The notes under the pieces are model-generated. The model worked only from the letters and a program-made list of their open reading frames with translations, ran no database searches and was not told the DNA's origin. From Schmidtea polychroa (taxonomy: Eukaryota): a stretch of 64,000 bases of DNA. Position numbers and translations under genes: made by a program. The stretch's first letter is position 1; each line of letters opens with the position of its first letter. The stretch covers positions 70,742,001 to 70,806,000 of the forward strand of contig CM097887.1 in assembly GCA_044892525.1 (NCBI GenBank), in the 5' to 3' direction. Of this stretch, positions 23,780 to 55,572 are shown piece by piece.

Positions 23780-24381
23780 CAAAAAATGTCAAAGTCCTAC
23801 AAAAATATATAAAAGAAGAGTTCGGGAAAGAATTTTCTCTGGTTTTAGACTCAAGAACACGATGGAATAGTTTGGTGTCTATGATAGAACATTTCATCAA
23901 ATTAAAAAATTGCATCAAAAAGAGTCTAATAGATTTAAAATCACCTATTTTGTTTTCAGATGCCGAGTTTGAAATGTTGTCGGATATCCTTTCAGTTTTA
24001 CTTCCCATTAAGCTTACAGTTGAAGCAATCTGTCGACAGGATGCAACTTTGTTATCTGCAGATACTGCTATTCAATTTATGATGAAATCAATAACTGACC
24101 ATCCATGTTCATTAGGTTATGAATTGAAAGCAGCTTTAAAAGTACGTATTCTTGAAAGACGAACAGAAATTTCAAGTATTTTGCAATATTTACATGATGC
24201 AAACTGCAATAAAAATCCAAGCGATGATGAAGCCGATAAAGATTATGAATTATTTCCGATCATTACCAAAGCTGCAATCGCAAAAATTATTGTTCTACAG
24301 ATACAACGTCTGGGTGTGGCCAACTTGCATTATGAAACTGCACCTGTAGCAACAACATCTACTTCAGCCAATGTTTCAAAT
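23780..24381 (+). pseudogene. hAT transposase, left fragment
   Basis: LDSRTRWNSLVSMIEHF...LLPIKLTVEAICRQDATL. The frame resumes at 54926 when the LTR element and one TSD copy are removed (ANVSN-SDINIIF). Confidence 0.85.
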
Positions 24382-27300
24382 TGTTGGGCTGAGTCGGAAA
24401 TTTAATCGTTGAAAAATAAGAAAGTAGGGAAGTAGAACATTAAGAAAAATAATAATAAAATAAATAAAATCAGAAATAAAATAGAATAAGATATAAGGAA
24501 GATAATAATTAAGACATAAGAATTAAAACAAAAAATAAAATTAAGAAAAGATTAAAATAGAACAAGTTGACAAATAAATAAAGAGGAATTCAAGAAATAA
24601 TAAGGAAATTAAGGAAATAAATAGAAAAACATATTAAAAATAAAGAAAATAAGGAAAAAACAACCTAAAAACAAGAAAATTATATTAAATTAATAGAAAT
24701 AAGCGGTACTCAACTCTGATTGGTCCGCACGAATAAGAATTTGATATATATACAACTACCAAAAACATTAAATTTACTGTTAACCCCGAGCATTTCATAG
24801 GTAAGAAAAATGTTTACTGTTTTTACTGTTAACCCCGAGCATTTCATAGACATCTACAACTCACGGAGACTTATTTCAAGGATCAGCAATACAAGTAGAG
24901 CAACAGTTAATTCGAAAAACTTCACAGCAATTCGAACTCAGTCACAGCAATCGACATTCGACGAACTATCATCAGACTAATTTGGAACGACTAACGTTAA
25001 TTTTCCGATTCAGCCTAATTCCATAGTAAGGGATTTTTATTTATGATATTGTTTTTCGAAGTTAATAGTAAATATGTATATTTAATGAGCAATTAAACTT
25101 TTAAATTTAACCAGACTCTCTTTTCATTTGATCCTGAATAACGATTTTGATAAAGTAAATAATTTAAATGTTTAAAAGTATTTATTGGTAACAGGTGAAC
25201 TCTTACATAATTTTTATGGATATTTATTTTGAAGTGATAGTTTTATGATTTCTAATATTAACGAGAAACGTGGCGTTGAGATACTCCATGTCATGGTGTG
25301 AGGTGCCTTCGGGAGCTCAGCCGGTGGACATGGAGTATTTCAATCACGCAGCTAGATTGGGCCGAAATGTGAAGGCTTCTTCACGGGTCCAATTGCTGAA
25401 GGACTTAAAATCTGTCAGAGTACCGAAATATAGACCGAAAGGAAACCTTCTGAAATTTTCGAAAATAGGATATGTGCTTCACAGCGACTGAGGGAGTTCT
25501 CATATTAACTCTGTATTGTCCAGAGTCGTCTTACAAGACATTCATGCCACTTCTGTCTATAAATCCGAACTTACCATGTGGGGGAAAATACCATTAAACA
25601 TCCATCGCTGGTTTTCTAACATATCGAGAAGTTGAAATTGCATTCGGTAGATTTTTGAAAAAGTAACTCTAATTTAGGTCATCTCTTTCAGATGCGACAT
25701 CCAAATCCTAGCATATGATGAGGAATTTACAATAAGGGAAAAATAAAACATAAAACCACAATAATACTGTATTCAATCACATATATTAACAAAATCTGGT
25801 AATACCCATCGAATAATGTTCATGCTGTTGCGTCGAAATATCCACTACTGAAATATGCTTCATAGAGTCTAGTTGGCTGGTTCGTAGAGATCTCCCATCG
25901 TTCAAAAACATCCAATATTGAGGAAATTACGAGTCGTAGTAAATAAATCCAACATCATAAGCTCAGATGGGAATCGACACGCGATGTAACATTTGCAGTT
26001 CGCTCAGTACGGTTGATAGTTACAGCTAGAATTTCCATCGAACAGGCACCCATACATACAGACATACTGCTAACATAACTATGAGTAGCGTCATCCGGTC
26101 AGAAATATGCATGAGAAACAGCAGAATCATTCCGAATGCCTCTCACCGCAGGGAATGCCGCCATGTGTCACCCTCTCTAGGATTCTTAGTGTGTGAGTAG
26201 TAATCAGTGGTCATATTAGATAATGCTGACATGAGATGTGACTTCCAGATGACTGACTCTTAAATTTCACTACTGATAAAGGTCATTCGTACCACTAAAA
26301 AGATAAGCCAAAATAACCAGTAACCGACTACTAAGATAAGAGACTCTCTAAAGTGCACTCATTAAAGATAATTTTGCTTAAATTAAATATTCTAAATAAA
26401 AATCGAAATTGTTGAAGGGGTATTTTAATTAATAACCGAAAATTCAAACCAAACTTTATAACTAAACCATAGGAAGTTTCACCTAAGTGTTGTAGAGGTT
26501 TATCGTAATTCTGATTAGATGTTACAAATAATAGTAGTAGCCTTTGAGCCAAATGTAAATTAACTAAAGCATCCACAGGAATTTTTGGGTTATAAAATAG
26601 CTAGTAATATTGTATTTAAATTTCTCATATTCCATGTAAACTACGTATCGCAATAGAAAACTAAATCCGATAACAAATTATTATGTAATTACAATGTTTT
26701 TACGATGCCATATTTCTACGACGATATCACCGTATGGTATGGATAAGGGGTGATCATAAAATAGTGACGTATAGTTTATACGAAGTTACGAGTTGTTACT
26801 TATTCCGCTACTTGAGGTAAGGGTGCAAGTTTTTACTAGTTGCATTTGGTCCAAAAACCTTATTTTGCATTAGAATAACAACAAATAATCAGCGAAATTT
26901 AAACGAAGTGTAGTATAGGGTATTTGTAATGAAATAGGTTTATTCACTCCGGCATGAACAAATCCGTAAATTGCCTTTATGTGCGATAGATAGAAATCCA
27001 ACTCGAACGCGATAGACGAAAATTAAAATTTTTACAAATAATTTGCATTCGTCAGGGAAGCAATCAGGGCGTTGAGGAATAATTTTTGTAAAGGATACGT
27101 AAAATATTAGTAATCAAGGGTGAAGGGAGGGATCCTGTTTCATCGACTCGTCTTGTTTTCTTCCAGCACTAAGTATCCAATAGCGAATAAACCGTATATC
27201 TGATCCGAAATTTTTGGATATAGTCATCATAGTTTTCTTCTTTAGCCATCCATATGTTATCAAACCACAAATCAGCTCTACGTCCCTGCTTCTCCTGCTC

Positions 27301-28540
27301 AGATAAAAATGCAGTGATTAAAGATCTTCAAGCCCAGATCGGTCGATATAAACGAAAAATCGACGAACTGGAAGGGACATGGTTTAGTCCCGCTCGGATG
27401 AAGGAGATCCAAAAGAAGCTCGATCGTAGCGAGCATTGCCGGGACGCGCTAATATCTGAGAGCCGTGCCCAAAGAAGTCTAATCAGAGAACAATCCGAGG
27501 CACTGCATAAGGTTTACGTGCAGGCGGCTACAACCCGAAAAATAGTGCAGATTCCCATCCGAGAGGCCGATGACATCTTTCCGCCTCATCACAACCTTTC
27601 CTCGAATCCATCTCCACCGTTCAAGAGACCGTGCCAAGACTGCGTCGAAAACGAATTGTCCCCCAAGCGACCAGATGTTGTCGTCACGGGTACCAGTAAG
27701 CCCCCCACTGCTAGTCCATCTGTATCAGTCACCCCTCTGCAAGTGGCATCTTCAAGCAAACCCAAGCGCAAACAACTCTCTCGTGCAGAGCGCAAGAAGA
27801 GACAGCGCGAACGCGCCACTACCAAGCCAAACATCCCATCAATAGAGGACTCAACCAACGGTGGCAACTCTCACGTGTCCATCGACCTAACAACGGGACC
27901 CTCAGCACGAATCATATCAGCCGCTGGCGTAACGTGGGAAGAGAACGCTTCCGAGTTTTTTAACCTCGACGAATTATTCGCCGACGCTGAATGGGAGAAA
28001 CAATAGAACCCCAGTGGCGGTCAGGACGAAGAACAAGGATCCGATCTATGTTGATTATGATGTTTTCTCTTCTTTCGACAAACATTAGTAAAGTGTACAG
28101 CTGAATCCCTGTGTCATAACGTTGAAATTAATAAATCTTGTTGTCTTACACGTTTTCGTTCATGAATAATTAGACTTTAATTAAGTGGGTTGAGTAGAGA
28201 ACCCGCCAGATCTAGTGAGAAATTCCCAATTTGTATTCAGCGAATCCTGATAAGTGGTTGTGTAAGGAAAAGGACGTAAGCCCTTCTAACGGCAGTCGTG
28301 AATGGGAAGTCGAGGCCTCAGCAAGGAGTAGTTTTAAGGCAGAAGCTCACCTGCTTGCTGGCGTCTCGCCTGCATAGTGCAGTACCAACGTGAAGTGATT
28401 CACGGGCACTATGTTGGAAGAAAGTTATGTGGGGTTTCACTCCAGGTTGACAAATCGGTGGCACCTTTTATTCGAGATGGACAATCAACCCTTAGACCCG
28501 TCAACATGGTAGAGTGGTCAGCCGAGGTGCAACCCCAACA
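24382..28540 (+). repeat. 5' LTR (4,159 bp)
   Basis: Starts TGTTGGG and ends CCCAACA (7-bp terminal inverted repeat). Matches 50767-54925 wherever compared. Confidence 0.96.
27254..28006 (+). CDS. LTR-encoded 250-aa protein of unknown function (5' copy)
   Basis: Intact ORF, identical in both LTRs. CxxC plus coiled coil, basic tract KPKRKQLSRAERKKRQRER, and acidic-aromatic C-terminus. A homolog exists at 19678. Confidence 0.75.
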   Translation: MLSNHKSALRPCFSCSDKNAVIKDLQAQIGRYKRKIDELEGTWFSPARMKEIQKKLDRSEHCRDALISESRAQRSLIREQSEALHKVYVQAATTRKIVQIPIREADDIFPPHHNLSSNPSPPFKRPCQDCVENELSPKRPDVVVTGTSKPPTASPSVSVTPLQVASSSKPKRKQLSRAERKKRQRERATTKPNIPSIEDSTNGGNSHVSIDLTTGPSARIISAAGVTWEENASEFFNLDELFADAEWEKQ

Positions 28541-28547
28541 TGATTTT

Positions 28548-28565
28548 TGGGGGCTCAGCCGGGAT
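28548..28565 (+). promoter_or_regulatory. Primer binding site, tRNA-Pro type
   Basis: TGGGGGCTCAGCCGGGAT matches the MLV tRNA-Pro PBS TGGGGGCTCGTCCGGGAT at 16/18 positions. It lies 7 nt after the LTR end. Confidence 0.85.
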
Positions 28566-28882
28566 CTACAATCGATCGAAATTTCTATTAACGAATGCGA
28601 AATTCACCGGGATTTTCATACAAAATTAAAGGGATTTATCACATCGATTTTCTGTTTTCAACCGACCATTGCTTGACGAATGCAAATTGACTATTGATTA
28701 TTAAATTATATTAGGAACTAAGTAGAGAAAATCAAAATGTAGATAATAGGAAAATTGAGGATATATATAAATAAAGGAGATAAAGTAGTCAAATTAAATA
28801 ATTAACAATGGTTAAAGAAACCAATTAACGAATTAACTATTAATTTACTACATATTATTAAAACATTACTTTTCCAACAGCT

Positions 28883-29368
28883 ATGACAGAATTCGCGAAC
28901 CAAATGCAACAACTGCTCAAGTTTATCGATATAGAAAACGACTCCCTAACAACACTGACGCATAAAAGAGAAAAAATCAACGCGATATTACTACAAGCAA
29001 TCGGACAAACACCAGTCGTACCTAATCATATGATATTAGCCACAGGCCTAAGTCGCCCAGATGGAAAAATAAACCCCGAAACCGTATATCAGTGGTATCA
29101 AGAGAGATTGAACCACCCAACATTAAATCTAGATTATCAGCGTCTAAAAGACTCACTAAATACAATACCAGATGCAATCGAACAAAAAATACAGGAAAAA
29201 GTTAACCAATTACGAACTTGTATAGCCTGCAAACTCCGTCCTATTCGCGTATTATTCTTGCCGTGTGGACACCTCAGTCACTGTGAAGAGTGTGTAAAAG
29301 ACCTAAAAAGATGCACGATGTGCAAATATGAAATAAAAGAGACCCATATGGTCTATTATGGCGAATGA
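28883..29368 (+). CDS. 161-aa protein with C-terminal C3HC4 RING of IAP/MDM2 type (putative E3 ligase)
   Basis: CIACKLRPIRVLFLPCGHLSHCEECVKDLKRCTMC. Acceptor TTTTCCAACAG lies 2 nt before the ATG. A decayed homolog lies at 21286-22445. Confidence 0.88.
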   Translation: MTEFANQMQQLLKFIDIENDSLTTLTHKREKINAILLQAIGQTPVVPNHMILATGLSRPDGKINPETVYQWYQERLNHPTLNLDYQRLKDSLNTIPDAIEQKIQEKVNQLRTCIACKLRPIRVLFLPCGHLSHCEECVKDLKRCTMCKYEIKETHMVYYGE

Positions 29369-29959
29369 AACGGCCGGCGATGTAACAGCAAGTATACGAT
29401 GTTTGAACAAGAATGCATGAAATTGTTGAGGTAACACGTACTGTTAATGATTCAATCTTTATGTTTATGATAAATAAATTCGTCTTTAAAAAGTTTTGAT
29501 GATTAGGACTAATAAAATTTGCATGACGAATGAATATTTGCGTGTTTGTTTTGTTTTATTTTTTTTTCGGAATCAAATGAAGAGAGGGTTGAATAACGTG
29601 GAATTAGTCCCAATATAGACTGCAGGGGTACAAACCGAGCCACCTTCGGGCGGTACGTCTTATTGTAAGAACCCGTTGGGAGGGGATAACTGATCAACCC
29701 AAGTAAGAAGCGTAGGGCGGGGTACCATCGCATATGATGAGAAGTTTTTGCGACATGACTGATCACCATGCAAATGTAGAAATGGATCATCGCGATCGTC
29801 GTGCGTTTTGAGCAAGGGGGGAAAGGGGAAACACTCCCAAGCGGTAAAGATTAAGTCGACAAATTAAAAGTAGATAGAGAAAATGGTAAACTAGAGTAAA
29901 AGAAGAAAAGAGAAATAGAAGCATGCAGAGCGAGGAATATTAAAGCCGAGCTGTCGAAT

Positions 29960-30610
29960 AATCCAGCCGGTCAAGGAGGAAGATTGAGCTGTTGAATAGT
30001 GCCAGCCAGTCGTAAGGTCGAGTTGTGAAAAGTCCAACCGATCAGGAAGGAGGAAGATTGAGCTGTTGAATAGTGCCAGCCAGTCGTAAGGTCGAGTTGT
30101 GAAAAAGTCCAACCGATCAGGAAGGAGGAAGATTGAGCTGTTGAATAGTGCCAGCCAGTCGTAAGGTCGAGTTGTGAAAAGTCCAACCGATCAGGAAGGA
30201 GGAAGATTGAGCTGTTGAATAGTGCCAGCCAGTCGTAAGGTCGAGTTGTGAAAAGTCCAACCGATCAGGAAGGAGGAAGATTGAGCTGTTGAATAGTGCC
30301 AGCCAGTCGTAAGGTCGAGTTGTGAAAAAGTCCAACCGATCAGGAAGGAGGAAGATCGAGCTGTTGAATAGTGCCAGCCAGTCGTAAGGTCGAGTTGTGA
30401 AAAGTCCAACCGATCAGGAAGGAGGAAGACTGAGCTGTTGAATAGTGCCAGCCAGTCGTAAGGTCGAGTTCTGAAAAGTCCAACCGATCAGGAAGGAGGA
30501 AGATTGAGCTGTTGAATAGTGCCAGCCAGTCGTAAGATTGAGTTGTTGAATAGTCCAACCGATCAGAAGGAAGAAGATTGAGCTGTTGAATAGTGCCAGC
30601 CAGTCGTAAA
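29960..30610. repeat. Tandem array of about 9 copies of a 74-75 bp unit in the 5' leader
   Basis: Anchor AGTCCAACCGATCAG at 30031, 30106, 30180, 30254, 30329, 30403, 30477 and 30552, plus a degenerate first copy. Confidence 0.95.
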
Positions 30611-31865
30611 GGCCTAGAAAAGCGAGAGATAGCAGTTAAGCTACAATGAGATAATATTTAAATTACTAGTGATATGGAATATTAAAGCTAGCTAGAACAA
30701 ATTGAATGTAATTTTGAAAATTCGAGTTTAGAGAGGAAATAAACGAGCTCGTGGAAAAGAAAATAGGATTATAATGAAAAAGGAAAGGGAAGAAGGAAAC
30801 GAATTAAAGAGATAATAGAAAATAAAGAATAGATGAAACGATGATAATGAGTAAAGAGGAAAGTAACTAACTAACTAAAGGGATCCCAGTGAAGTAGAGA
30901 AACTCTACGGAATATTTTTTTTGGTTAAACCGGGAAAATGCATTTTATTGGTTCCAGAGTAGAACCGAGCGTAATAATAGTGAATATGAAAAGTAAAATA
31001 GCGATAACAGCGCAAAAGGATTAGGAAAATGAAAGGGGGGTAATAAGCAGAGACCGACAACGACCTATTTTTACTATAATTGATAACGAATAGATAATTA
31101 TTACGACTTTATAGATAATTGTTACTACCCCATATAGATAATTTAAAATCGACGGAAAATACGGGCTGATGGGATATTATAACCCGCAGAAAGGATTTCA
31201 CAAAAGATAGGGGAAGCACAAACAGAAACCTAAAAGGTGTCTGTTTTTGAACGTTGTAGAAAGAATGATGAAGTCGTGTAAGCAAATGCAACACGAGATC
31301 ATTTTTTCATTTTAGATATCAAGCCAATCCAGCCAACCAAGACAATCCAGAACCTGCACAAAAGGAATTCGAAGAAATCGACAATCAACCAAGGATAAAT
31401 CCATTCAGAACCCGCACCGAGAGACACAGCAACCGGAAGACTCCCGAACGGAAGAAGTATTAGCAGCCATCTGCCAAGGATTAGAAACACAATCAGAACC
31501 GAACGCGACCAATTCAATAGCCGCTAATTACCAAGAAGCGTAAGAAAGGAATCACGGATAAACCCAATCTTAGATCTTCAAGTAAGCCAGGAGACGTATT
31601 ATTTTCAGGAGACGAATTACAACAACTCAAAAGAGGACGATCCATTAAACATCAAAGAGGAATATCACAAGGATCCAGAAGAACCAATCAAGTACCCATA
31701 TTTGACCAAGAAAATCTCGGATATACCCCTAGTCGATCTCGAAGTAGAGAAAGTCTGTCCGATATCACTAATAGTTTAGCAACGTCAACCGAAGAATTAT
31801 CAGCCCAAAGTTTAGTCACATCGTTAGACAATTTAAAAGAAACAGACGAACCTAGAACACCAATC

Positions 31866-34800
31866 ATGACGAATGTCGTAAAAACCGACGAGTATAAAGA
31901 GAAGTTCAGAGGAGAACCGTTCAACGGAAATGCAAACAAGCTAGCAACGTTCATAACTAATTTTGAAGTTTATATCACTGTGTGTGGATGGACACCCGAA
32001 GCAATTAGTAAAAGGATGCCGTTGTTTTTGTGCGATAGTGCATTAGAGGTATATTTAGAAGCTAAAGAGAGAGACACGAAATTAGAAAAGTGGGAAGATA
32101 TTAAAACATTCCTGAAGAAAACCTTCGGAGCCAGTAAGCCAATCAACCAGGCGTTGGGCGAACTAGCAAATAGGAAACAAAGAGCAAACGAATCGATAAC
32201 ATTATATGCCAGTGAATTGCGGAGATTAGCGAAGAAAGCAATGAATGGAAAATTACCCGAAGAAAATCTGATCGGTTATTTCATAGAGGGATTACGCCGA
32301 GAAGAAGTAAGAGCCTCAGTAGGTTGTCAAATGTGCAAAACATTAGAGGAAGCCATAGATTGGGCTACAAGATGCGAGCTCCACCTTCCAGCTCAAATGA
32401 ATATTATGCAAGAGGAGGGAAGGATAGCGACAGCAATAGCGAAAGCGGATAACGGAGATAACAACAATCAAGAACCGAAAATGAATCAATTTATACCAGG
32501 AGCGCACCAAATTTTCAAACCACCACAAGGACGATCAAACGGGAATAATGGTAATCGTAACAACCCGAATAATGAGAACAATTTCAATAATCGGCGAAAT
32601 ATGAACGATAACAAGCAGTGCCGAACATGCGGTAAACCAGGACACTGGGACAGAGATTGTTATAGAAATTCAAATTGTAATCGTTGCGGACGGCGTGGAC
32701 ATACCGAAAATGTATGCCAATTGCGAGGCTGTTTTAACTGTGGTCAGCCAGGTCACATCTCCAGAGATTGCCGAGAAAGGGGCCAACAACAACGACCACC
32801 ACAGCGAAATAATAATTGTATAGCGAATCCGCAACGACAAAGTAACCCTAACGAAGGAAAACAAATGAACGTTATGCAGGAAATTTCGCAGATGAAACAG
32901 ATGATGCAACAAATGATGAGACCAAGACAAGAATCAGCACCACAACAAACCCAGAATATACGTATGATGAGGAGTACCGAAAATCTCAACAATTATGAAG
33001 TGCATCAACATGTACAAGAATGGCAAAGGCTACAGGCCGAGGAAGAGAGGATAAAACAAGAACGCAACCAACAACGACAAGAACAACCATTGCGAATAAA
33101 TATGATGAAGTTAGTAAAAGACATGAAGAGCCAGTATTGCTACAATTACGGGAAAAGCCCAAGGGTAGTACCCACGACTGAACCAGAAAAGGTAAAAGAA
33201 ATAACAACGGAAATGGAAACAGAGAATTCAACCACGATTTTAAAAGGAAACCAGAGAATTCAGAAAATATTCTGGAAAAAGATAAAGGATAAAATCGAAA
33301 AAGAACATAATAAAGCGAAAACCGAGACAGAAGATGAAAATAACAAGAGCAAGGAACAAACCAGTCAACTAAACCACCAAATGCTACAAGAATCAGAATC
33401 AGAAGAAACAACAATATTCGAAAGAAAGAAACTAAAGAGAGTACCAAGGATGAGAAACTTGCAAATCAATATGATGAAAAGGACAAAAGATGTAGCATCG
33501 TCAGACGAAGAAGAAGATTATGTAAGTAGTTTGGGTGGAGAAATACTACAGCCGAATGAAATAAGCGAACCCCCAAAAGGGGAAATCAAAGAGGAAGAAA
33601 GCGGAAACGAGATAACCAGTGAAAGTGAAAACGAAGATATCGAAATAAAGTTGAGAAAAGCAAGGGAGGAAGCGATAAAACAGGTAGCCGAAATACTCCC
33701 AGTAGTAGTGAGAAACCAAGAGTTCATCGACGTAATACCATTCAGGCGATTCGTGCAAAAAGTGATGAAATTGGAAAGAAACGAGAAAGATCTAATACCA
33801 AATGAGGAAAAATCAATTATAAAAAATTATATGGAAAAAATGAAGCAGGCCGATACCACGCGGTATGTAATAAAAATTGGAACGAGTAGAGGACTTGAAA
33901 GAATGTGGATAAAAAATACAGTCACCGACGAACTTTTCGATTGGATACGAGAGCATTTGGGAAGTTCGAGAAAGAAAGAATATCTGTATCAATACCAAGG
34001 AGAACAGATCAAACCAGATATGCACTTAGTAGATGCACTAATATGGCCAGGAGAAACGCAAATACTGAAGTTGCATAAAGAAAAACAACCAGCCAACCTT
34101 TACGATTGGGCTAAAGATGCCAAGGCAGAATATGATTTTAATATCAAATTGAAATTAGAACAAATAAAACAATGTACTCTGAGACGAAACCTGGATAAGC
34201 TGATCAAACAAATTCAAGAACAAGTAGAAGACAACTGGGATTTACTCATCACCAGACGAGCCCCAGCCATGTACGAACTAATGAGCCGGTTGCGAGATAC
34301 AGAAATGCTCCGAATGAGTGATTGGAGAACCATAAATTTGATCCACAAATATGGAAGGTTAAAAGAAACCCAGCCACAGAGGTTAGAAATAACCATATGG
34401 TTACCGAACGAAGAAAAACGACGAATAAAAATGAGCAATCAGAGTACAGTAGATGACTTGGTATCAAAAATAAACCAAGAGATAACGGAAAAGGTACGTA
34501 GCGAAAGTAGTGATGGTATGGTGGATGATGTAGTCATGATGTACGATAAGATAATATTACGAGCGGAGGACGACACCTCGTTAAGCGAAATGGGTATGTG
34601 GGACAATCACCAGATAATCAGGATAGTACCAATGGATGAATTTCGAACAAGAGATGTAACCTATCAAAAAGAAATACGAGACCGGATGAAAACGTTATAT
34701 CAAAAATCTACGGAAATAATTAAAATCCACCAACAATGGTTAAAAGAAAAAGAACTACAAGGAAAAATCACGAAATTAAGCACCAGATCCTGCAGACGAA

Positions 34801-36893: not shown

Positions 36894-38475
36894 AAAAAGG
36901 TACTCGCATATTACTGTGGACAATATTCGTATTCGACTCTTATACTACCCGGTCTGGATAAAGAAATCGTATCAATACAACGAGAGGATTGTAAAGAGCT
37001 ATTTAGAACCGGAGCGCTAAAAATGCATAACGGAGTGACAATTCACGGACAAACTGGAATGATTAAAACCGAAAGTGTTTACGTATCCGGAAAAGTAAAA
37101 TCATCAGATGGGTCATGTAACGGGGGGACGTATACGATCCGAGGCGAGGTAATATCGGGAGTTGTAGTGATCGAGTCTTACACGGTCGAATTAAAAGAAT
37201 ACGAAGCGCAATTTGACGCAAATAATTACCAAATGAAGACCAACCCAGCGTGTAAAGCTACAGAAAACGTATGCAGGACAGGAGTATCAACTATAATCTA
37301 TGAAGCTAATACCCAAAAATGCCGACTCCAACTGTTAAAAAGTGCTTTGTTCAATGAAGTAAAAGGAGAAATATATGAGAACGAGAACGACGAGGATGGA
37401 AACGACAGAGTGAGAATGCGAAATGGAAAACCAATGCCACCATCTCCCAGAGAAAAGAGACTTTCAACGCAGAAGACACCAACAGCATTAATCACAGACG
37501 ATCCAGATCTAGGTATGAGATTTATCAAAGAGAAAGAAACCACCAAATGTGACAGTATAGTATATAAAACCAATTACGCAGGTATCTACATGTCGAGACA
37601 AATAATCGATAGAGCAGTGGGAAAGATAGCAACGGAGGACGTAAAACTATACTTATATGCAAATAATAAAATGGATTTTCTATTTCATCGTGGACAAACG
37701 ACCTTGCAAAAAGTATATTACGATCTGATACAAAACGATTGTTCATTGAATAAAGAAATATTGAAAACAAAGCTAGCTATTGCGATAACGCACCCCGATA
37801 ACACGATGCCATCACTCCCATTACCAGATGGACACTTTGGTAGAATGGTAGGAGAAGTGATGTACACATACCAGTGTACCAAGACGTATGCACGAATGCC
37901 AGAAAAATCCATACTACCCGAAAAGAGATGTGCAAATGAATTAGAAATTCGTTATAAAGGACAAAATCGATTCGTCCAACCAGTCACTAGAATTATGAAT
38001 CCAGTGGGTTTCTACCCAAATCTCTTTAACTGTTCTAATGCATACGGACCTTTGTATGAAAGACCCGATGGGAAATGGATGATGTTACCGGGAAAAACCA
38101 TATCCGAGGAACCCAAGAAATTTGGATTAATAGAACTCGCCACAGAGCTGGATTTCAAACCTATAGACGTGTCAAACGGTGGTATGTATTCCCCAGAAGA
38201 TCTAGAAACAGCACGACTTAACGTACTCTTCCCAGCCAGACGAGAATCCATTTTGTCTAATATGGTCACAATAACTGGGGGCACAAACTATCAATCAGGC
38301 CCGAATTACGAGCTGCTATTATCGCCAGACCATTTTCAACAAGCTACGTCAAACATGATGAAAGCAATGTGGGGAAGATTCTTAGTTTTTGGACAAATGA
38401 TGGCCGGGATATTAGGGATCATACTCATAATTCAGATAGTCAGAGTAATACTAACACAAATGTTAGCTTGTTTCG
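36717..38475 (+). other. Chuvirus-like viral envelope glycoprotein domain (ectodomain plus TM), spanning the in-frame TAA
   Basis: FTIYDC after a hydrophobic segment, then ECVV..YYCG..SYS, DGSCNGGTY, CDSIVYKTN, KLYLYANNKMDFL, GEVMYTYQC, CANELEIRY...FVQPVTRI, GGMYSPEDL...LFP and WGRFLVFG followed by a TM helix. This is the Cys and motif order recalled for Chuviridae glycoproteins. Confidence 0.8.
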
Positions 38476-45719: not shown

Positions 45720-45879
45720 AAAGGAATATGACTGTATATAATTGTAAAAAGTAAGTATATCTTATGTATATAACAGTATTATATCTTTATATAAGCGCGG
45801 TATCAATATTATACAATAACGGGAATCATAAAATAAAATTAAATTTACATAAGAGTTGAAAAGAGTATATAAATTAGGA

Positions 45880-46239
45880 ATGGATCAAGGAAATAACGAA
45901 ATGAACCACAATACAGTAACTGAAGAATTATGGAAGCAACAATGTGCCGTATTAGCACAATTAGTGTCCAATTTGCAAGAACAAGGACTGACGATGCACA
46001 GAAACCTGATCGAGAGTATGAACAGAGGATTTAGTTATTTGAAGATAATTGAAGACCAGAGGTTAAAAATCGAACAAATGCAAAGAGAGATAGAGAGGAT
46101 AACCCAATATAGCCGTCGACAGGAAATTGAAATAGACAGAATGATGGAGGAAGCAGAACAGACAGAAATAGAAGACTGGTCGGAATGGCTAATGAATAGA
46201 GAGGAGAGCGGACACGAAGCCGACTCTTCCGAACCCTAA
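45880..46239 (+). CDS. Accessory coiled-coil protein (~119 aa), unknown function
   Basis: Intact ORF with TTAG 2 nt before the ATG and a heptad-like, Q/E/R-rich sequence. Confidence 0.6.
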   Translation: MDQGNNEMNHNTVTEELWKQQCAVLAQLVSNLQEQGLTMHRNLIESMNRGFSYLKIIEDQRLKIEQMQREIERITQYSRRQEIEIDRMMEEAEQTEIEDWSEWLMNREESGHEADSSEP

Positions 46240-46324
46240 ACCAAACCTAGCTCAAAATGTAAATAATTGTAAATAAAATATCGAACCTGTATCGATAAGA
46301 ACTATTTGTACATATAATTATAGA

Positions 46325-47713
46325 ATGGATAAACGACAAAGAGAAGAGTTCAGAGAGATTGTCGAGCAAGTCCGAAAATCTACAACGATCAGAATACACA
46401 AACATGTTATGTGCGGAATATGTGAAAAGTTGTTAAAGGAACCTCACCAAACGCAATGTGGATGCAGAGTATGTAAAGAATGTATCAGTGAAGCAATAAA
46501 GAATAGACCACAAAGGTGCCCGGTGTGTAAAGAGACACTAATATCGAGTTTAGAAGACACTAACGAGGATAAAGCCGCAGTGAAAGACATGTTAAACACC
46601 AACCTGGGATGCAAAAATGCCCCATGCGAATGGAAAGGAGTAATATGGAAGGTAGTACAACATATGGGAGAATGTATGTACAGAATTGGCCAGTGTGAAA
46701 GGTGCCATAAAACCATTCGAGCAAGCGAAGAAAAAGAGCATCAAAGGCAGTGTGAGGAGAGATTGGAAAGATGTGAACACTGTGGAGAAATAGATACGTG
46801 GATAAATCTCACCCTCAAACATCACAATGTCCAAGAGGAGAGAGTATGTGCGGAGTTCAGTGGGGAATGCCCAAACGGATGTAACCAAGGGGAAACAATG
46901 AAGGTGGCACAGCATCTAAGGGAATGCGAAAAGAAAAGAATGACATGTGTACTAGGTAGATGGGGTTGTCAGAAATTACTACACCGAGGTGAGTTACCAC
47001 ATCATTTAGTAGAAAATGCTTCAACTCACGCAGAAATGTGGTCGACTGCGTTACAAGAAAGCGAAGAGAAAGTAAAACAAATGGAGATAGAGATAACATC
47101 GTTGAAAGTGTTAGTCAAAGAACTACTAGAAGAAAGGAAAGCGTTCGAAGAAGCCCGAGCAAACATAAAGATGCAAATAAACCGAACAGAAATTAGTAAT
47201 AATCAGGCCAAGGAGCTACATCAGAAAATACGGGAAATAAATCTAAATGAGATAACCCCAACAGCACCCTACATATGGAAAATAACGGGAGTAAAAGAAA
47301 GAATACGAAAAGCAAAAACCGGAGAAGAGACAAGAATAACAAGTCCTACATTCCATTCTTGGAAAAATGGGTACAAAATGAAAATGAAGATATATCCCAA
47401 CGGGGACGGAACCGGATTAGATACGCACTTTTCGATTTTCTTTCTGTTATGTAAAGGAGAATACGACGAAATATTAGAATGGCCGTTCCAGGCAAAAATC
47501 GATATTACTCTGATGAGCAACCAAAGTATACATGAGCAAAGCTTCAAAACAACGGGGAATCAAATAGCTTACCAGAGGCCCCTCAACGAAGAAGGATCAG
47601 CAACAGGAGCACCTACGTTCATCTCACAACAAAGAGTAGAAGATATGGCGAGAAATGATACCATATATATCAAGATGACCGTGAGGAAAGAGGAGAAGGG
47701 TAGAACGGAATAA
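46325..47713 (+). CDS. Intronless TRAF-family protein (RING, TRAF zinc fingers, coiled coil, MATH/TRAF-C)
   Basis: CGICEKLLKEPHQTQCGCRVCKEC...CPVC; CKNAPCEWKG, CPNGC and C.LGRWGC fingers; YIWKI...SPTF...GYKMKMKIYPNGDG.G..THFSIFF.LCKGEYD..LEWPF...QRP...G.PTFI. Confidence 0.95.
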   Translation: MDKRQREEFREIVEQVRKSTTIRIHKHVMCGICEKLLKEPHQTQCGCRVCKECISEAIKNRPQRCPVCKETLISSLEDTNEDKAAVKDMLNTNLGCKNAPCEWKGVIWKVVQHMGECMYRIGQCERCHKTIRASEEKEHQRQCEERLERCEHCGEIDTWINLTLKHHNVQEERVCAEFSGECPNGCNQGETMKVAQHLRECEKKRMTCVLGRWGCQKLLHRGELPHHLVENASTHAEMWSTALQESEEKVKQMEIEITSLKVLVKELLEERKAFEEARANIKMQINRTEISNNQAKELHQKIREINLNEITPTAPYIWKITGVKERIRKAKTGEETRITSPTFHSWKNGYKMKMKIYPNGDGTGLDTHFSIFFLLCKGEYDEILEWPFQAKIDITLMSNQSIHEQSFKTTGNQIAYQRPLNEEGSATGAPTFISQQRVEDMARNDTIYIKMTVRKEEKGRTE

Positions 47714-47906
47714 CCAATCGAATAATGTTGTATATAATAATCTGTATATATCGGTGTATATAACTAATAAAATATTATATAATAATAGTATGAAAACCCT
47801 AAATACGAAAACCCAAAAATGATGCGAAAATTTCCCAAGAAACAGTAAATAATGAATAAATTCCTTTTTCATAATAAAAAGATTAATCGATGTCTATGAT
47901 TTAGAG

Positions 47907-48962
47907 ATGACACAAGAGAAAATAACCGAAACTGCGATAGACCCAACCAATGTCAACAAGACACAAATTCCCCGAGAACATAACAAAAAATGGAACAAAG
48001 TAATGTTCCAACTAACTAATCTCACCCGAAATCACATCGAAGAAACTAGAGAAGATGAGAATAGTCAATACCAATGGTTAATACACAACTTAAGAGCGGA
48101 AGCAGAAGCATGCAAAAGAGCATCAAAATGGGCGTCACTAGAAAATACCCGCCAAGAAGCACACAGCCACTACTTAAAGCAGCTAGTGCAGGAAGCGAGA
48201 AAGAGACTTACCGATGAGAACACCAAGCGCGAAGCGGAAAAGCAAATAGAAGACAGGAAAATGATGCACTTAGTGGCAGAAGCGAGAAAATGGAAAAGAC
48301 AAAACAGAGACATGAAAAAAGAGATGAAAGAATTGCCCAGGAGACTCGGATATGAAAGCGAACAAGGTAAATGGGAGGAGAATTTAATAATAAAGGAAGA
48401 ATTGAAAAGGTTGAGAAAGGTCGCCGCCCGAAGCCAAACCTGGCAAACAAAGGCTATGGAGTTTGAGCGACATTTGGCAATGAAGTGCGACATAAGAGAG
48501 CACGAGAATGCCGCAATGGAAGAGATGATAACCCAACAAGCGGGACGGGTTGTGGAATTAGTAAATCAGGTAGAAGAGATGAAAAGAGACCTTAATGGAT
48601 TACAAGGATCGCTGGAACAAAGAAACATGGTCCTAGCGGGAAAAAACAGAAAATTAGAAAACGAAAGGAAAATGTACACCGAAAATATTAAAAACTTAGA
48701 AATAGAAATTGAAAAATGGAAGGGCGACGAGAAAATCAAGGCCCTAGACAAACAGATAGAGGCGAAAGATGAAGAGACTAGGTATCTCACCTATCTGCTC
48801 GACGAGGAATTGAATATCACTCGAGCTCTAAGAGACGAAGTTAGTGAATTGAGAGCTCAAATTCCCCAATATTACCTACCATACGACCCTATTGCGATAC
48901 AGTTACATTCCGCGGTCGATAGTGATGAAGGTTATGTAGGCCAGGAGGAAACCTTCGTATAA
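47907..48962 (+). CDS. Accessory coiled-coil protein (351 aa), unknown function
   Basis: Long intact E/K/R-rich heptad ORF in the same orientation, with TTAG just before the ATG. Confidence 0.75.
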   Translation: MTQEKITETAIDPTNVNKTQIPREHNKKWNKVMFQLTNLTRNHIEETREDENSQYQWLIHNLRAEAEACKRASKWASLENTRQEAHSHYLKQLVQEARKRLTDENTKREAEKQIEDRKMMHLVAEARKWKRQNRDMKKEMKELPRRLGYESEQGKWEENLIIKEELKRLRKVAARSQTWQTKAMEFERHLAMKCDIREHENAAMEEMITQQAGRVVELVNQVEEMKRDLNGLQGSLEQRNMVLAGKNRKLENERKMYTENIKNLEIEIEKWKGDEKIKALDKQIEAKDEETRYLTYLLDEELNITRALRDEVSELRAQIPQYYLPYDPIAIQLHSAVDSDEGYVGQEETFV

Positions 48963-49130
48963 GGGTGGATGAAAAGATGAAAAACTAAAAACCGGGACGT
49001 ATATCCCAAACAAAAAAATTAAAGTATTGTAAAAGTATTCAAGGGACTGTAACCCAAACTATTAAATTTTATATCAATGTATACGTATAAGTCGCACTAT
49101 AGCGCACCATTAACTGTACATATTATAGAT

Positions 49131-49829
49131 ATGAAAATCGAGGAAATGATAGAAATTATGAGCGACGTAGAAGAGGGAGAGATTGAGGCAGAAACAACAG
49201 AAACACAAACGCTAAAGGCCGAGTTACGGGAAGAGAAATACGAAAACGGGAGATTAATAAACAAATACCTGGAGGACCGGAAAATGATAAAGGTGTTAAA
49301 GAAAGAGTGCGAAGCGTTGGGGGAAATAAAAAGAGAAACGGAAGAGGAAAATGAATGGCTACACGAACAAAGGAAGCGAGGGAAAAACTGGGAAAAGATA
49401 GCGGAAGAGCTATGGAAAGAGAGGGCAAGCTTCAAAGCAAAGGAGGTAATCCAAGACTACTGGAAAACTGAGGCGAAGGAGCGCCAAACAGCTATAAATA
49501 AATTAAAACGACAACTAGAAGAAAACCAACGGGAAAGTAAAGAAATGAAGAAGTGGGTCCGCAAATATAGAGAAATAGAAAGAAAACATCAACAACAAAA
49601 TTACCTGCAAGAAAACGAACAAGATCTCCTACAAATCGAGCTAAAAAGAAACCTTGAAAAGAAAAGGGAAGAAATTAGACGCTTGGAAAAAGAAATTAGA
49701 CATCTAAAGAGAGAAGCCCGTGAAAAAGACCGACAATTGGAAATGCTGCCCGAGTTAAGACACAGGGTAATTAAAGCAGAGTCCACCTTGATGAGAATCG
49801 GTGAAAATAATCCAAATCAGAACCATTAA
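49131..49829 (+). CDS. Accessory coiled-coil protein (~232 aa), unknown function
   Basis: Intact E/K/R-rich ORF. The likely start is the ATG at 49131 after ATTATAG (the ORF track starts at 49077). Confidence 0.7.
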   Translation: MKIEEMIEIMSDVEEGEIEAETTETQTLKAELREEKYENGRLINKYLEDRKMIKVLKKECEALGEIKRETEEENEWLHEQRKRGKNWEKIAEELWKERASFKAKEVIQDYWKTEAKERQTAINKLKRQLEENQRESKEMKKWVRKYREIERKHQQQNYLQENEQDLLQIELKRNLEKKREEIRRLEKEIRHLKREAREKDRQLEMLPELRHRVIKAESTLMRIGENNPNQNH

Positions 49830-49884
49830 ATTAAGGGTCATTAAAACCAATTGTAAATAAACATAATGAATGTATAATAGTATC

Positions 49885-50538
49885 ATGCGAGGCGAGATGA
49901 TGATAACAATGATGGTATTGATGATTCTGATGGAGAACAAACAATTAAACGCCCAACCGAAAATCGTACGAGATTACCGCAATCAAAATCAAGAACCTAA
50001 ACAAGAATCCGGCAAATGCACATACCCTATGACCGTAAAAACCCATATCATCCAAACCATTCAATCAACCCGATCCCACATCAACAACATCCAAACAATG
50101 TGTAAAAAGAACCCCATTTGTAAAATGATAAACAAACAAATCTTCGAACAAAGCCAACAGATCGACCAGTTGGAACAACAAATGCAACAAGAGGATTTTG
50201 AAAATCTTGTAGAAAAGCCAAAAACACCTCCCGAGATCAATGACACCCATTATCTCATATATGTGGTGATCGCAGAGACCCTCCTCCTATGTCTACCAAT
50301 ATTCATGAAAATTTACGAAATTCGAAATAGATGTAGAGTCTCGACATCAATAAGAGTAACCTCGAACCAAAATCCTCAAGAAGTGCCCCTGACAAATCTT
50401 AACCCATCCCCATTCCGACCTCGAACCCCGAGTAATCAACCAATCCAGCCGAAATCTAATAGTCAGACCTATCTCAACATTAATACCCAAACCAACCAAC
50501 AGCCGCCAGCAGAAGCATCAATGGTTAACAGTTCATAA
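49885..50538 (+). CDS. Orphan type I membrane protein
   Basis: Signal-like MMITMMVLMILM, a small helical ectodomain with 3 Cys, a TM helix YLIYVVIAETLLLCLPIFM and a P/N/Q-rich tail. Confidence 0.7.
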   Translation: MRGEMMITMMVLMILMENKQLNAQPKIVRDYRNQNQEPKQESGKCTYPMTVKTHIIQTIQSTRSHINNIQTMCKKNPICKMINKQIFEQSQQIDQLEQQMQQEDFENLVEKPKTPPEINDTHYLIYVVIAETLLLCLPIFMKIYEIRNRCRVSTSIRVTSNQNPQEVPLTNLNPSPFRPRTPSNQPIQPKSNSQTYLNINTQTNQQPPAEASMVNSS

Positions 50539-50766
50539 ACTCTAACTCAAACATTTGTGTTATTATATGTGGAAACTTTTATTGTATGTACAAACTATCA
50601 CCTTAAGTGATACTTGCTTGATCTTGCTTTGACCTTGATCTTACAATAAAATTTTTATCATTGTTGTATAATTTTTCGTGTTCGTGTTATATTTTTTTTT
50701 TCGAATGAATGAATTAAGTTAATTATGCAATTGCGGGACGCAATTTTGATGGGTCCCCGAGTGATT

Positions 50767-53700
50767 TGTTGGGCTGAGTCGGAAATTTAATCGTTGAAAA
50801 ATAAGAAAGTAGGGAAGTAGAACATTAAGAAAAATAATAATAAAATAAATAAAATCAGAAATAAAATAGAATAAGATATAAGGAAGATAATAATTAAGAC
50901 ATAAGAATTAAAACAAAAAATAAAATTAAGAAAAGATTAAAATAGAACAAGTTGACAAATAAATAAAGAGGAATTCAAGAAATAATAAGGAAATTAAGGA
51001 AATAAATAGAAAAACATATTAAAAATAAAGAAAATAAGGAAAAAACAACCTAAAAACAAGAAAATTATATTAAATTAATAGAAATAAGCGGTACTCAACT
51101 CTGATTGGTCCGCACGAATAAGAATTTGATATATATACAACTACCAAAAACATTAAATTTACTGTTAACCCCGAGCATTTCATAGGTAAGAAAAATGTTT
51201 ACTGTTTTTACTGTTAACCCCGAGCATTTCATAGACATCTACAACTCACGGAGACTTATTTCAAGGATCAGCAATACAAGTAGAGCAACAGTTAATTCGA
51301 AAAACTTCACAGCAATTCGAACTCAGTCACAGCAATCGACATTCGACGAACTATCATCAGACTAATTTGGAACGACTAACGTTAATTTTCCGATTCAGCC
51401 TAATTCCATAGTAAGGGATTTTTATTTATGATATTGTTTTTCGAAGTTAATAGTAAATATGTATATTTAATGAGCAATTAAACTTTTAAATTTAACCAGA
51501 CTCTCTTTTCATTTGATCCTGAATAACGATTTTGATAAAGTAAATAATTTAAATGTTTAAAAGTATTTATTGGTAACAGGTGAACTCTTACATAATTTTT
51601 ATGGATATTTATTTTGAAGTGATAGTTTTATGATTTCTAATATTAACGAGAAACGTGGCGTTGAGATACTCCATGTCATGGTGTGAGGTGCCTTCGGGAG
51701 CTCAGCCGGTGGACATGGAGTATTTCAATCACGCAGCTAGATTGGGCCGAAATGTGAAGGCTTCTTCACGGGTCCAATTGCTGAAGGACTTAAAATCTGT
51801 CAGAGTACCGAAATATAGACCGAAAGGAAACCTTCTGAAATTTTCGAAAATAGGATATGTGCTTCACAGCGACTGAGGGAGTTCTCATATTAACTCTGTA
51901 TTGTCCAGAGTCGTCTTACAAGACATTCATGCCACTTCTGTCTATAAATCCGAACTTACCATGTGGGGGAAAATACCATTAAACATCCATCGCTGGTTTT
52001 CTAACATATCGAGAAGTTGAAATTGCATTCGGTAGATTTTTGAAAAAGTAACTCTAATTTAGGTCATCTCTTTCAGATGCGACATCCAAATCCTAGCATA
52101 TGATGAGGAATTTACAATAAGGGAAAAATAAAACATAAAACCACAATAATACTGTATTCAATCACATATATTAACAAAATCTGGTAATACCCATCGAATA
52201 ATGTTCATGCTGTTGCGTCGAAATATCCACTACTGAAATATGCTTCATAGAGTCTAGTTGGCTGGTTCGTAGAGATCTCCCATCGTTCAAAAACATCCAA
52301 TATTGAGGAAATTACGAGTCGTAGTAAATAAATCCAACATCATAAGCTCAGATGGGAATCGACACGCGATGTAACATTTGCAGTTCGCTCAGTACGGTTG
52401 ATAGTTACAGCTAGAATTTCCATCGAACAGGCACCCATACATACAGACATACTGCTAACATAACTATGAGTAGCGTCATCCGGTCAGAAATATGCATGAG
52501 AAACAGCAGAATCATTCCGAATGCCTCTCACCGCAGGGAATGCCGCCATGTGTCACCCTCTCTAGGATTCTTAGTGTGTGAGTAGTAATCAGTGGTCATA
52601 TTAGATAATGCTGACATGAGATGTGACTTCCAGATGACTGACTCTTAAATTTCACTACTGATAAAGGTCATTCGTACCACTAAAAAGATAAGCCAAAATA
52701 ACCAGTAACCGACTACTAAGATAAGAGACTCTCTAAAGTGCACTCATTAAAGATAATTTTGCTTAAATTAAATATTCTAAATAAAAATCGAAATTGTTGA
52801 AGGGGTATTTTAATTAATAACCGAAAATTCAAACCAAACTTTATAACTAAACCATAGGAAGTTTCACCTAAGTGTTGTAGAGGTTTATCGTAATTCTGAT
52901 TAGATGTTACAAATAATAGTAGTAGCCTTTGAGCCAAATGTAAATTAACTAAAGCATCCACAGGAATTTTTGGGTTATAAAATAGCTAGTAATATTGTAT
53001 TTAAATTTCTCATATTCCATGTAAACTACGTATCGCAATAGAAAACTAAATCCGATAACAAATTATTATGTAATTACAATGTTTTTACGATGCCATATTT
53101 CTACGACGATATCACCGTATGGTATGGATAAGGGGTGATCATAAAATAGTGACGTATAGTTTATACGAAGTTACGAGTTGTTACTTATTCCGCTACTTGA
53201 GGTAAGGGTGCAAGTTTTTACTAGTTGCATTTGGTCCAAAAACCTTATTTTGCATTAGAATAACAACAAATAATCAGCGAAATTTAAACGAAGTGTAGTA
53301 TAGGGTATTTGTAATGAAATAGGTTTATTCACTCCGGCATGAACAAATCCGTAAATTGCCTTTATGTGCGATAGATAGAAATCCAACTCGAACGCGATAG
53401 ACGAAAATTAAAATTTTTACAAATAATTTGCATTCGTCAGGGAAGCAATCAGGGCGTTGAGGAATAATTTTTGTAAAGGATACGTAAAATATTAGTAATC
53501 AAGGGTGAAGGGAGGGATCCTGTTTCATCGACTCGTCTTGTTTTCTTCCAGCACTAAGTATCCAATAGCGAATAAACCGTATATCTGATCCGAAATTTTT
53601 GGATATAGTCATCATAGTTTTCTTCTTTAGCCATCCATATGTTATCAAACCACAAATCAGCTCTACGTCCCTGCTTCTCCTGCTCAGATAAAAATGCAGT

Positions 53701-54925
53701 GATTAAAGATCTTCAAGCCCAGATCGGTCGATATAAACGAAAAATCGACGAACTGGAAGGGACATGGTTTAGTCCCGCTCGGATGAAGGAGATCCAAAAG
53801 AAGCTCGATCGTAGCGAGCATTGCCGGGACGCGCTAATATCTGAGAGCCGTGCCCAAAGAAGTCTAATCAGAGAACAATCCGAGGCACTGCATAAGGTTT
53901 ACGTGCAGGCGGCTACAACCCGAAAAATAGTGCAGATTCCCATCCGAGAGGCCGATGACATCTTTCCGCCTCATCACAACCTTTCCTCGAATCCATCTCC
54001 ACCGTTCAAGAGACCGTGCCAAGACTGCGTCGAAAACGAATTGTCCCCCAAGCGACCAGATGTTGTCGTCACGGGTACCAGTAAGCCCCCCACTGCTAGT
54101 CCATCTGTATCAGTCACCCCTCTGCAAGTGGCATCTTCAAGCAAACCCAAGCGCAAACAACTCTCTCGTGCAGAGCGCAAGAAGAGACAGCGCGAACGCG
54201 CCACTACCAAGCCAAACATCCCATCAATAGAGGACTCAACCAACGGTGGCAACTCTCACGTGTCCATCGACCTAACAACGGGACCCTCAGCACGAATCAT
54301 ATCAGCCGCTGGCGTAACGTGGGAAGAGAACGCTTCCGAGTTTTTTAACCTCGACGAATTATTCGCCGACGCTGAATGGGAGAAACAATAGAACCCCAGT
54401 GGCGGTCAGGACGAAGAACAAGGATCCGATCTATGTTGATTATGATGTTTTCTCTTCTTTCGACAAACATTAGTAAAGTGTACAGCTGAATCCCTGTGTC
54501 ATAACGTTGAAATTAATAAATCTTGTTGTCTTACACGTTTTCGTTCATGAATAATTAGACTTTAATTAAGTGGGTTGAGTAGAGAACCCGCCAGATCTAG
54601 TGAGAAATTCCCAATTTGTATTCAGCGAATCCTGATAAGTGGTTGTGTAAGGAAAAGGACGTAAGCCCTTCTAACGGCAGTCGTGAATGGGAAGTCGAGG
54701 CCTCAGCAAGGAGTAGTTTTAAGGCAGAAGCTCACCTGCTTGCTGGCGTCTCGCCTGCATAGTGCAGTACCAACGTGAAGTGATTCACGGGCACTATGTT
54801 GGAAGAAAGTTATGTGGGGTTTCACTCCAGGTTGACAAATCGGTGGCACCTTTTATTCGAGATGGACAATCAACCCTTAGACCCGTCAACATGGTAGAGT
54901 GGTCAGCCGAGGTGCAACCCCAACA
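50767..54925 (+). repeat. 3' LTR (4,159 bp)
   Basis: Direct repeat of 24382-28540, followed by TSD AAAT and the resumed hAT sequence. Confidence 0.96.
53639..54391 (+). CDS. LTR-encoded 250-aa protein (3' copy)
   Basis: Translation identical to 27254-28006. Confidence 0.75.
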   Translation: MLSNHKSALRPCFSCSDKNAVIKDLQAQIGRYKRKIDELEGTWFSPARMKEIQKKLDRSEHCRDALISESRAQRSLIREQSEALHKVYVQAATTRKIVQIPIREADDIFPPHHNLSSNPSPPFKRPCQDCVENELSPKRPDVVVTGTSKPPTASPSVSVTPLQVASSSKPKRKQLSRAERKKRQRERATTKPNIPSIEDSTNGGNSHVSIDLTTGPSARIISAAGVTWEENASEFFNLDELFADAEWEKQ

Positions 54926-55307: not shown

Positions 55308-55572
55308 AACCTTAAATTTTTATGTCTTCTTCCTTTTCTTATAATTAATATATATAACTAACATTTTACTGAATTTTGTTTTTCCATTTTTTATTCTTTA
55401 AATAAATAAATTTAGTTTTTTTTAATTGACAAATTTTTAATTAAATTATTTATTCATTCGTATTATTATAGGAAAAATAATAATACCGGTATTAATACCG
55501 GGATCCCGGGATTACAAATTTTCAATACCGAAATACCGGTATCGGATTTTTGGTCCGGTATTCCCAACCCTA

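Follow-up and report, generated by a model that had tools for sequence, protein, structure and literature searches.

The giant Gypsy-like elements of dugesiid planarians known as Burro1 or GYPSM1 (Jurka 2007 and Grohme et al. 2018, as described in PMC6431247) travel with a good deal of luggage. Burro elements encode TRAF/MATH, BIR, ankyrin, BCL2-like, Ubi2/SUMO-like and dUTPase-like domains alongside an in-frame env; they have been seen as possible proviruses, and were proposed in 2019 to meddle with apoptosis and ubiquitination (PMC6431247). According to the available excerpt of PMC13465017, Lee et al. (2026) reported that the RING and BIR region of Burro1 (B-IAP) safeguards planarian stem cells from caspase-mediated death, and an excerpt of PMC8532177 describes BURRO1 as repressed by SMEDWI-2, with transcripts in differentiated (intestinal and epidermal) cells after SMEDWI-2 loss. 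Element type, cargo list and apoptosis hypothesis are already published. Here we describe an element of this type in a 64,000-nucleotide stretch of the Schmidtea polychroa genome (GenBank assembly GCA_044892525.1, contig CM097887.1, positions 70,742,001 to 70,806,000, forward strand; hereafter the window, with positions counted from its first letter). What we add is fold-level confirmation of the Bcl-2-like domain, data on selection, and a family lacking BIR, the caspase-binding domain of IAPs (inhibitor of apoptosis proteins), beside a BIR-bearing sister. With a probability of roughly 0.55, we propose that this cargo, kept by selection, would keep the cell alive during replication of the element.

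Positions 24382 to 54925, exactly the span outlined in the initial annotation, hold one complete long terminal repeat (LTR) element of 30,544 bp; all features given below lie on the forward (+) strand, except where no strand is assigned. Its 5' LTR (24382..28540; 4,159 bp, TG...CA ends with a short terminal inverted repeat) is 100% identical over its whole length to the 3' LTR (50767..54925), and a 4-bp target-site duplication (24378..24381, partner 54926-54929; strand not assigned) flanks the pair. The interior is dominated by a single polyprotein frame (31866..45719) of about 4,600 amino acids (aa) from the first Met, in the order Gag, zinc knuckles, candidate ubiquitin-like domains, Bcl-2-like domain, Env, protease, reverse transcriptase (RT), RNase H, integrase, two ankyrin clusters and a membrane tail; one RING open reading frame (ORF) lies upstream and five ORFs lie downstream. 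Gag comprises a Retrotrans_gag domain and CCHC zinc knuckles (32019..32774), Env is a Monjiviricetes-type fusion glycoprotein in frame between gag and pol (36663..38486, membrane segment 38397-38453), and protease, spacer, RT, RNase H and integrase occupy 39054..41885; the spacer between protease and RT, called dUTPase-like in the Burro literature (PMC6431247), had no Pfam match.

Its sequence marks the element as a recent insertion of the Burro type, an env-bearing Gypsy LTR retroelement. It shares with Burro1/GYPSM1 a length above 30 kb, long LTRs, a giant polyprotein, env between gag and pol, the protease-RT-RNase H-integrase order and zinc knuckles, as well as ubiquitin/SUMO-like, BCL2-like, ankyrin and TRAF cargo, tandem repeats and accessory ORFs. 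The features expected of a Burro element are there in its length and multi-kb LTRs, its single polyprotein (~4,600-5,100 aa) and its cargo set, the ubiquitin-like part weakly so. It differs in having neither MATH in the polyprotein nor BIR, in carrying its TRAF as a full-length downstream ORF, and in its two ankyrin clusters: a BIR, or a second MATH such as the polyprotein MATH of Burro1/GYPSM1 proper, was found in 0 of 19 elements of the window family (family A), whereas a control family of the same genome (family B) has both. Family A is assigned to the Burro type by published layout, not by reference sequence, and may equal Burro2, 3 or 4; protein searches with the RING ORF, TRAF and Bcl-2 domain returned no named Burro protein, and no BIR-less Burro family was found in the literature searched, although primary Burro papers or their supplements may already describe one. 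With at least 150 near-identical matches of the element in the genome, family A is abundant and evidently recently active. When 150 of 875 candidates from a genome search were scored, about 59 of the 150 (counted by eye) lay within a 4,732-codon open frame. The window copy has one in-frame stop (36891-36893), inside env; programmed readthrough at 36891 was rejected because 29 of 30 loci are open at the site.

The initial annotation had placed a Bcl-2-like domain, a TRAF, an IAP-type RING, ankyrin repeats and two extra membrane proteins on this one retroelement, and all of these are borne out by Pfam, PDB, fold and hydropathy comparisons. The Bcl-2 identity (36144..36554, directly upstream of the env leader) is weak by sequence and clear by predicted fold. 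Its Pfam match falls below the cut-off (E 0.031), a profile comparison reaches Bcl-xL at E 0.0056, and a single-sequence PDB search returned 0 matches; protein databases gave one repetitive, probably spurious match and the ESM Atlas none that was usable. An AlphaFold model from element sequences only (predicted local distance difference test score, pLDDT, 75.5, with two of the five models exceeding 70) nonetheless adopts the helical Bcl-2 fold. In a structure search over 48,161 chains the top 35 rows were all Bcl-2-fold proteins, the best at Z 13.9 with a root-mean-square deviation of 2.6 over 137 residues, and the first unrelated row stood at Z 5.7; Foldseek likewise ranked Bcl-2 proteins top, none reaching E 0.001. 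A BH2-like motif is retained, and the domain immediately precedes env in each of the three families compared, the most distant of which is 50% identical in RT. The same genome encodes a BOK-like host protein with a BH3 region (locus L127).

Upstream of the polyprotein, a 161-aa ORF (28883..29368) joins a helical N-terminus to a C-terminal RING of cIAP/XIAP type, its best PDB matches being the RINGs of cIAP2, cIAP1, livin and XIAP (E 2.4e-10); across the eight proteins aligned, no RING cysteine varies, nor does the histidine. It had no match in the protein databases searched. IAPs are held to carry at least one BIR, and Pfam found none in this ORF or elsewhere in the element; nor did probing the window element and 18 further family-A copies with BIR domains of the sister family (0/19, control positive). 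The ORF holds the same position in family B (27% identity), where it corresponds to the upstream RING-only ORF and not to the BIR-RING ORF. Its likeness to B-IAP, as the excerpt of PMC13465017 presents that protein, lies in an element-borne IAP-type RING and the same proposed effect on cell survival; the difference is that B-IAP combines BIR and RING, whereas the window protein has the RING only.

Downstream, a single-exon ORF of 462 aa (46325..47713) encodes a full-length TRAF with everything by which the family is recognised: RING, zinc fingers, coiled coil and C-terminal MATH. Pfam assigns MATH at E 7e-27 and RING at E 1e-4, TRAF3 and TRAF2 match it in the PDB (E 1e-27), and the N-terminal half matches the RING and zinc fingers of TRAF6 (E 1.5e-14); protein databases returned one unnamed match, at 35%. 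Planarian TRAF2/3-like proteins, as far as the excerpts of PMC6109357, PMC7586133 and PMC8807557 describe them, share this architecture, and the window TRAF differs from them in being element-borne and high-copy. It is 27-31% identical to single-exon TRAF genes of the same genome. In a tree of MATH domains (the top 30 of 150 scored MATH loci plus 12 element loci) the element TRAFs, on a long branch, are not part of the well-supported clade formed by 21 split-exon TRAF loci, and group loosely with six single-exon loci whose flanks hold no Burro core of their own. These six single-exon loci beyond Burro elements (L150, L153, L154, L158, L163 and L166) might, on sequence, be donors or escapees. 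Element-borne TRAFs, one per family-A copy and two MATH domains per family-B copy, may inflate the reported planarian TRAF expansion.

The cargo had been likened in the initial annotation to the toolkit with which large DNA viruses block cell death and immunity. The likeness is that of the same folds in a selfish replicon: the Bcl-2 model matches A179L of African swine fever virus (Z 12.0) and BHRF1 of Epstein-Barr virus (Z 11.0), as well as the Bcl-2 protein of Kaposi's sarcoma-associated herpesvirus and poxviral proteins, and baculoviral IAPs and poxviral and polydnaviral ankyrin proteins are large-DNA-virus counterparts of the remaining cargo. Here, however, the carrier is a retroelement, it has no BIR, and cellular Bcl-2 proteins match equally well or better (Hydra, Z 13.9). 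By sequence comparison and modelled fold, the closest relatives found for the cargo come from cells and not from DNA viruses; with a TRAF that groups with host single-exon TRAFs and best Bcl-2 fold matches that are cellular, the viral toolkit is to be taken as an analogy.

Whether any of this luggage is useful to its carrier can be read from how copies have diverged. Eighteen copies were hand-picked from the top matches to span divergence, many of them for long open frames; ratios of nonsynonymous to synonymous substitution rates (dN/dS) against the window copy were pooled over 11 mid-distance and 5 far copies, the two nearest being left out, and some far values are saturated. The Bcl-2 fold stands at 0.07 mid and 0.02 far, comparable to RT (0.05 mid, 0.01 far) and env (0.03-0.05), and non-coding controls stand at 0.60-0.93. 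The ubiquitin-like region (0.02-0.05), ankyrins (0.05-0.16), TRAF (0.08-0.16), RING ORF (0.06-0.29) and the polyprotein tail (0.06 mid, 0.11 far; tail and three downstream ORFs 0.06-0.12) all lie low, the last ORF (222 aa) is highest at 0.39-0.45, and no segment exceeds 1. When each variant was counted once (13 copies plus the window), shared-variant ratios were 0.00-0.11, with 0.48 for the last ORF. Every cargo segment is under purifying selection; such selection acts among element lineages and so shows benefit to the element. The alternative of captured host sequence carried along neutrally, for which one might cite two ubiquitin-like candidates with nothing beyond weak sequence signals, is refuted by this constraint and is highly improbable: of 150 scored matches, with identities as low as 71%, 143 have a RING ORF free of internal stops (counted by eye), and out-of-frame readings of the same DNA contain 5-40 stops per ORF. 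The ends of the element (RING ORF, C-terminal half of TRAF, last ORFs) diverge faster than its core, and copies that share 95-99% identity across the core are much less alike in the RING ORF (28883-29368), the 3' ORFs (46500-50760) and the LTRs, a contrast that suggests recombination between sublineages.

Our preferred reading is that the cargo promotes survival of the host cell through a Bcl-2-fold protein and signalling proteins of the ubiquitin-ligase kind, not through a BIR caspase inhibitor. The polyprotein would be cut by the element protease at a motif recurring at domain borders, and by host signal peptidase, releasing a ubiquitin-like and Bcl-2-fold piece that ends in the env leader, plus an ankyrin piece; the leader could then tether the third ubiquitin-like domain and the Bcl-2 fold to a membrane, as the tail anchor does in cellular Bcl-2 proteins. 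TRAF and the RING protein, as adaptors and E3 ligases, may feed into the TRAF/TAK1/TBK1-JNK/p38 stress signalling of the host. In the excerpts available, knocking down host TRAF in S. mediterranea increases cell death (PMC7586133, PMC8807557), and TRAF2, XIAP, TAK1, JNK and p38 shape its infection response (PMC4993586). The claim of the initial annotation that the element manipulates host cell survival, possibly in stem cells, is thus partly supported, in that the domains are real and selected and Burro1, in the excerpt cited above, offers a precedent.

Several observations weigh against this reading. With BIR in 0 of 19 copies, the only experimentally supported route is missing from the window family. 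The canonical BH1 motif, which lines the BH3-binding groove, is gone, the aligned position differing in families A and B and being partly retained in a third, family C; several viral Bcl-2 proteins likewise lack BH1. BAX, BAK, BOK and vaccinia A52 and A46 also match the model, and a survival role is weakened because proteins with this fold may also promote apoptosis or have functions unrelated to it. Membrane anchoring by the env leader is weakly supported, since that leader falls below the hydropathy threshold of 1.6, and the border motif counts seven matches against shuffle means of 0.2 and 0.4 in a test that is biased because the pattern was composed after the sequence had been seen. The polyprotein of the window copy is itself interrupted inside env, all dN/dS pairs share the window sequence, and counts of open ORFs are biased upward because copies were hand-picked, many for open frames. 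Nor is stem-cell specificity a given, because Burro1 transcripts occur in differentiated cells, according to the excerpt of PMC8532177.

The loss of BH1 also lends itself to a reading in which the cargo dampens innate-immune or stress signalling and not apoptosis, the Bcl-2 fold working like that of A46 or A52 and the TRAF as a decoy in the TBK1/TAK1 pathway. In its favour, A52, N1 and A46 score Z 7.9, 7.8 and 6.2 against the model; planarian TBK1, in the excerpt of PMC13563047, governs the expression of TRAF and limits foreign nucleic acid; and divergence among copies is faster in the RING ORF, the TRAF C-terminal half and the last ORFs than in the core. BH3-binding Bcl-2 proteins, however, match better (Z 10-14), no segment shows the dN/dS above 1 that an arms race might give, and in S. 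mediterranea, as the same excerpt has it, clear NF-kB homologues have not been identified, though divergent Rel-domain genes exist. We regard this reading as quite unlikely.

How the cargo was assembled can be gauged from its sister families. Family B (two elements, L183-L188) is 89-90% identical to the window family across RT-RNase H and has the published Burro1 layout: MATH inside the polyprotein, an accessory TRAF, a BIR-RING IAP and one ankyrin cluster. It shares the Bcl-2-like domain (34%), the ubiquitin-like regions (35-43%) and the upstream RING-only ORF (27%). Conservation between subfamilies, whose absence the initial annotation had named as part of what would refute it, is therefore what we find, with purifying selection on the cargo and most of it recurring in family B at 24-43% identity. 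Family C, known from one copy (L180:4371 to L181:7956), is a 13.6-kb env-bearing Gypsy with 1.1-kb LTRs, 50% identical in RT-RNase H, and its Bcl-2-like domain (Pfam E 1.9e-6) again lies directly before env; in that single copy no match to TRAF, RING or ankyrin was found. An RT tree joins A and B (100/99) and leaves C outside (midpoint root, long branches). On these sequences the Bcl-2/env junction looks oldest, with TRAF, RING and ankyrins common to A and B. BIR, sought in a genome search that scored 150 of 309 candidates, the scored matches lying mostly in frames of 392-393 codons, is confined to B among the families examined, which is compatible with gain in B as well as with loss in A.

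The same comparison bears on whether the cargo serves the particle cycle of the element (polyprotein handling, trafficking, budding, cell entry), with little effect on cell death. Such a role would fit the fusion of Bcl-2 fold, ubiquitin-like domains, ankyrins and tail into the Gag-Env-Pol frame, where they are constrained nearly as RT is, the equally strong constraint on env (0.03-0.05), and the presence of a membrane module after integrase in all three families. TRAF and the IAP-type RING, on the other hand, are separate ORFs of signalling families; they and the ankyrins appear dispensable for the core cycle, since family C has open frames for gag, env and pol yet no match to any of them; and family B adds a true IAP. 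We consider a purely particle-related role unlikely, and return to cell survival. Tentatively, and as a possibility more doubtful than not, the kit may be layered: an ancient Bcl-2 fold with an Env-signal anchor, then TRAF, ankyrins and RING, with BIR only in the Burro1 lineage, so that family A, without BIR, would either protect cells independently of caspases by a mitochondrial or endoplasmic reticulum route, or free-ride on the IAP of its sister. If true, this would let mutualist and cheater transposons be set against each other in a natural test inside one genome. The window adds a second abundant, recently active family without BIR in which each remaining cargo gene is under purifying selection. 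Should that family protect cells, Bcl-2 fold and TRAF/RING would be the working parts and host-transposon mutualism would have more than one route; should it give no protection, close relatives in one genome would differ as helper and parasite.

The remaining cargo is more mixed. Two ankyrin-repeat clusters follow integrase (42591-43493 and 43701-44453; Pfam Ank_2 E 1e-16 and 2e-9). The suggestion that they are IkB-like and block NF-kB finds no footing: their best PDB matches are generic ankyrin proteins, IkB is absent among the best 60 of 164 PDB rows, neither Pfam nor PDB comparison detected an F-box, SOCS-box or IkB feature in the cargo, and clear NF-kB has not been identified in S. mediterranea (PMC13563047, excerpt). 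The ubiquitin-like domains of the initial annotation fare unevenly. Two candidates (33843-34085 and 34368-34640) stay unconfirmed; a third (35313..35540) has a Pfam ubiquitin match below the cut-off (E 0.0033), and of the seven weak PDB rows for it (E 0.2-2.4), six belong to ubiquitin variants, ISG15 or a UBX protein. The fold prediction for the region has a pLDDT of 39.5 and no Foldseek match, and as a C-terminal di-glycine is present in 0 of 3 segments, they are not conjugatable modifiers.

The polyprotein tail (44718..45716) reads as a predicted type I membrane protein of no known family, with a hydrophobic leader (44718-44774), a cysteine-containing middle and a membrane segment (45522-45578); the ESM Atlas gave no usable match for it. 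The second membrane protein is the 222-aa ORF (49870..50538; hydrophobic segment 50251-50307), the fastest-evolving of the element, and the hydrophobic segments of both are retained in diverged copies. The tail modules of A, B and C share their position without detectable homology (probability 1% or less), and a fibronectin-like tail, hinted at in family C (E 0.084), was rejected for the window family as not transferable between such tails. Between the two membrane proteins lie a 119-aa ORF of no known family (45880..46239; 32% identical in family B), the TRAF, and two charged, coiled-coil-like ORFs of 351 aa (47907-48962) and 250 aa (49077-49829). Family C, for its part, has a 718-aa downstream ORF without a Pfam family.

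Some smaller features complete the element. Each LTR contains a 250-aa ORF of no known family (27254..28006 and 53639-54391), which is uninterrupted in all 14 of the mid and far copies in which it was found, even at 65% and 36% identity, where synonymous sites are saturated; the LTR of family B holds a homologue. A candidate primer-binding site begins 7 bases after the LTR (28548..28565) and presumably resembles the tRNA-Pro type; no tRNA gene was found within the 64-kb window, and no polypurine tract is obvious before the 3' LTR (50741-50766). The leader contains a 74-bp tandem array of 8.6 copies (29973..30609). A core at 36006-36020, which we take to be AT-hook-like, directly precedes the Bcl-2 fold in all three families. 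Of four sequencing runs compared with 30800-50760, a stretch that excludes the RING ORF, one that is putatively RNA covered 30 of 30 bins with contigs, another 15 of 30 and one none, counts with no bearing on transcription, the RNA status of the runs being unproven.

The element has itself landed in a selfish host, a hAT-like DNA transposon (23550..55551; inverted repeats 23550-23583 and 55518-55551) whose ORF pieces lie at 23743-24381 and 55035-55304 (Dimer_Tnp_hAT E 0.0085, below the cut-off). Other broken DNA transposons in the window are a DDE_3 (Tc1/mariner-type) piece at 4456-4986 and a hAT-like element at 8208-10389. To the left of the insertion, a fragment at 22682-22871 is 77% like the element leader (29637-29849) and is probably the relic of an older related element. 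Elsewhere in the genome, a second kind of selfish element carries Bcl-2 cargo: Polinton/Maverick-like elements (L192-L194; L134-L148, L189-L191), present in many copies with protein-primed PolB, integrase, A32-type ATPase and terminal inverted repeats, hold a Bcl-2 gene above the Pfam cut-off (for example L193:1730-2161), in some cases apparently with a short intron.

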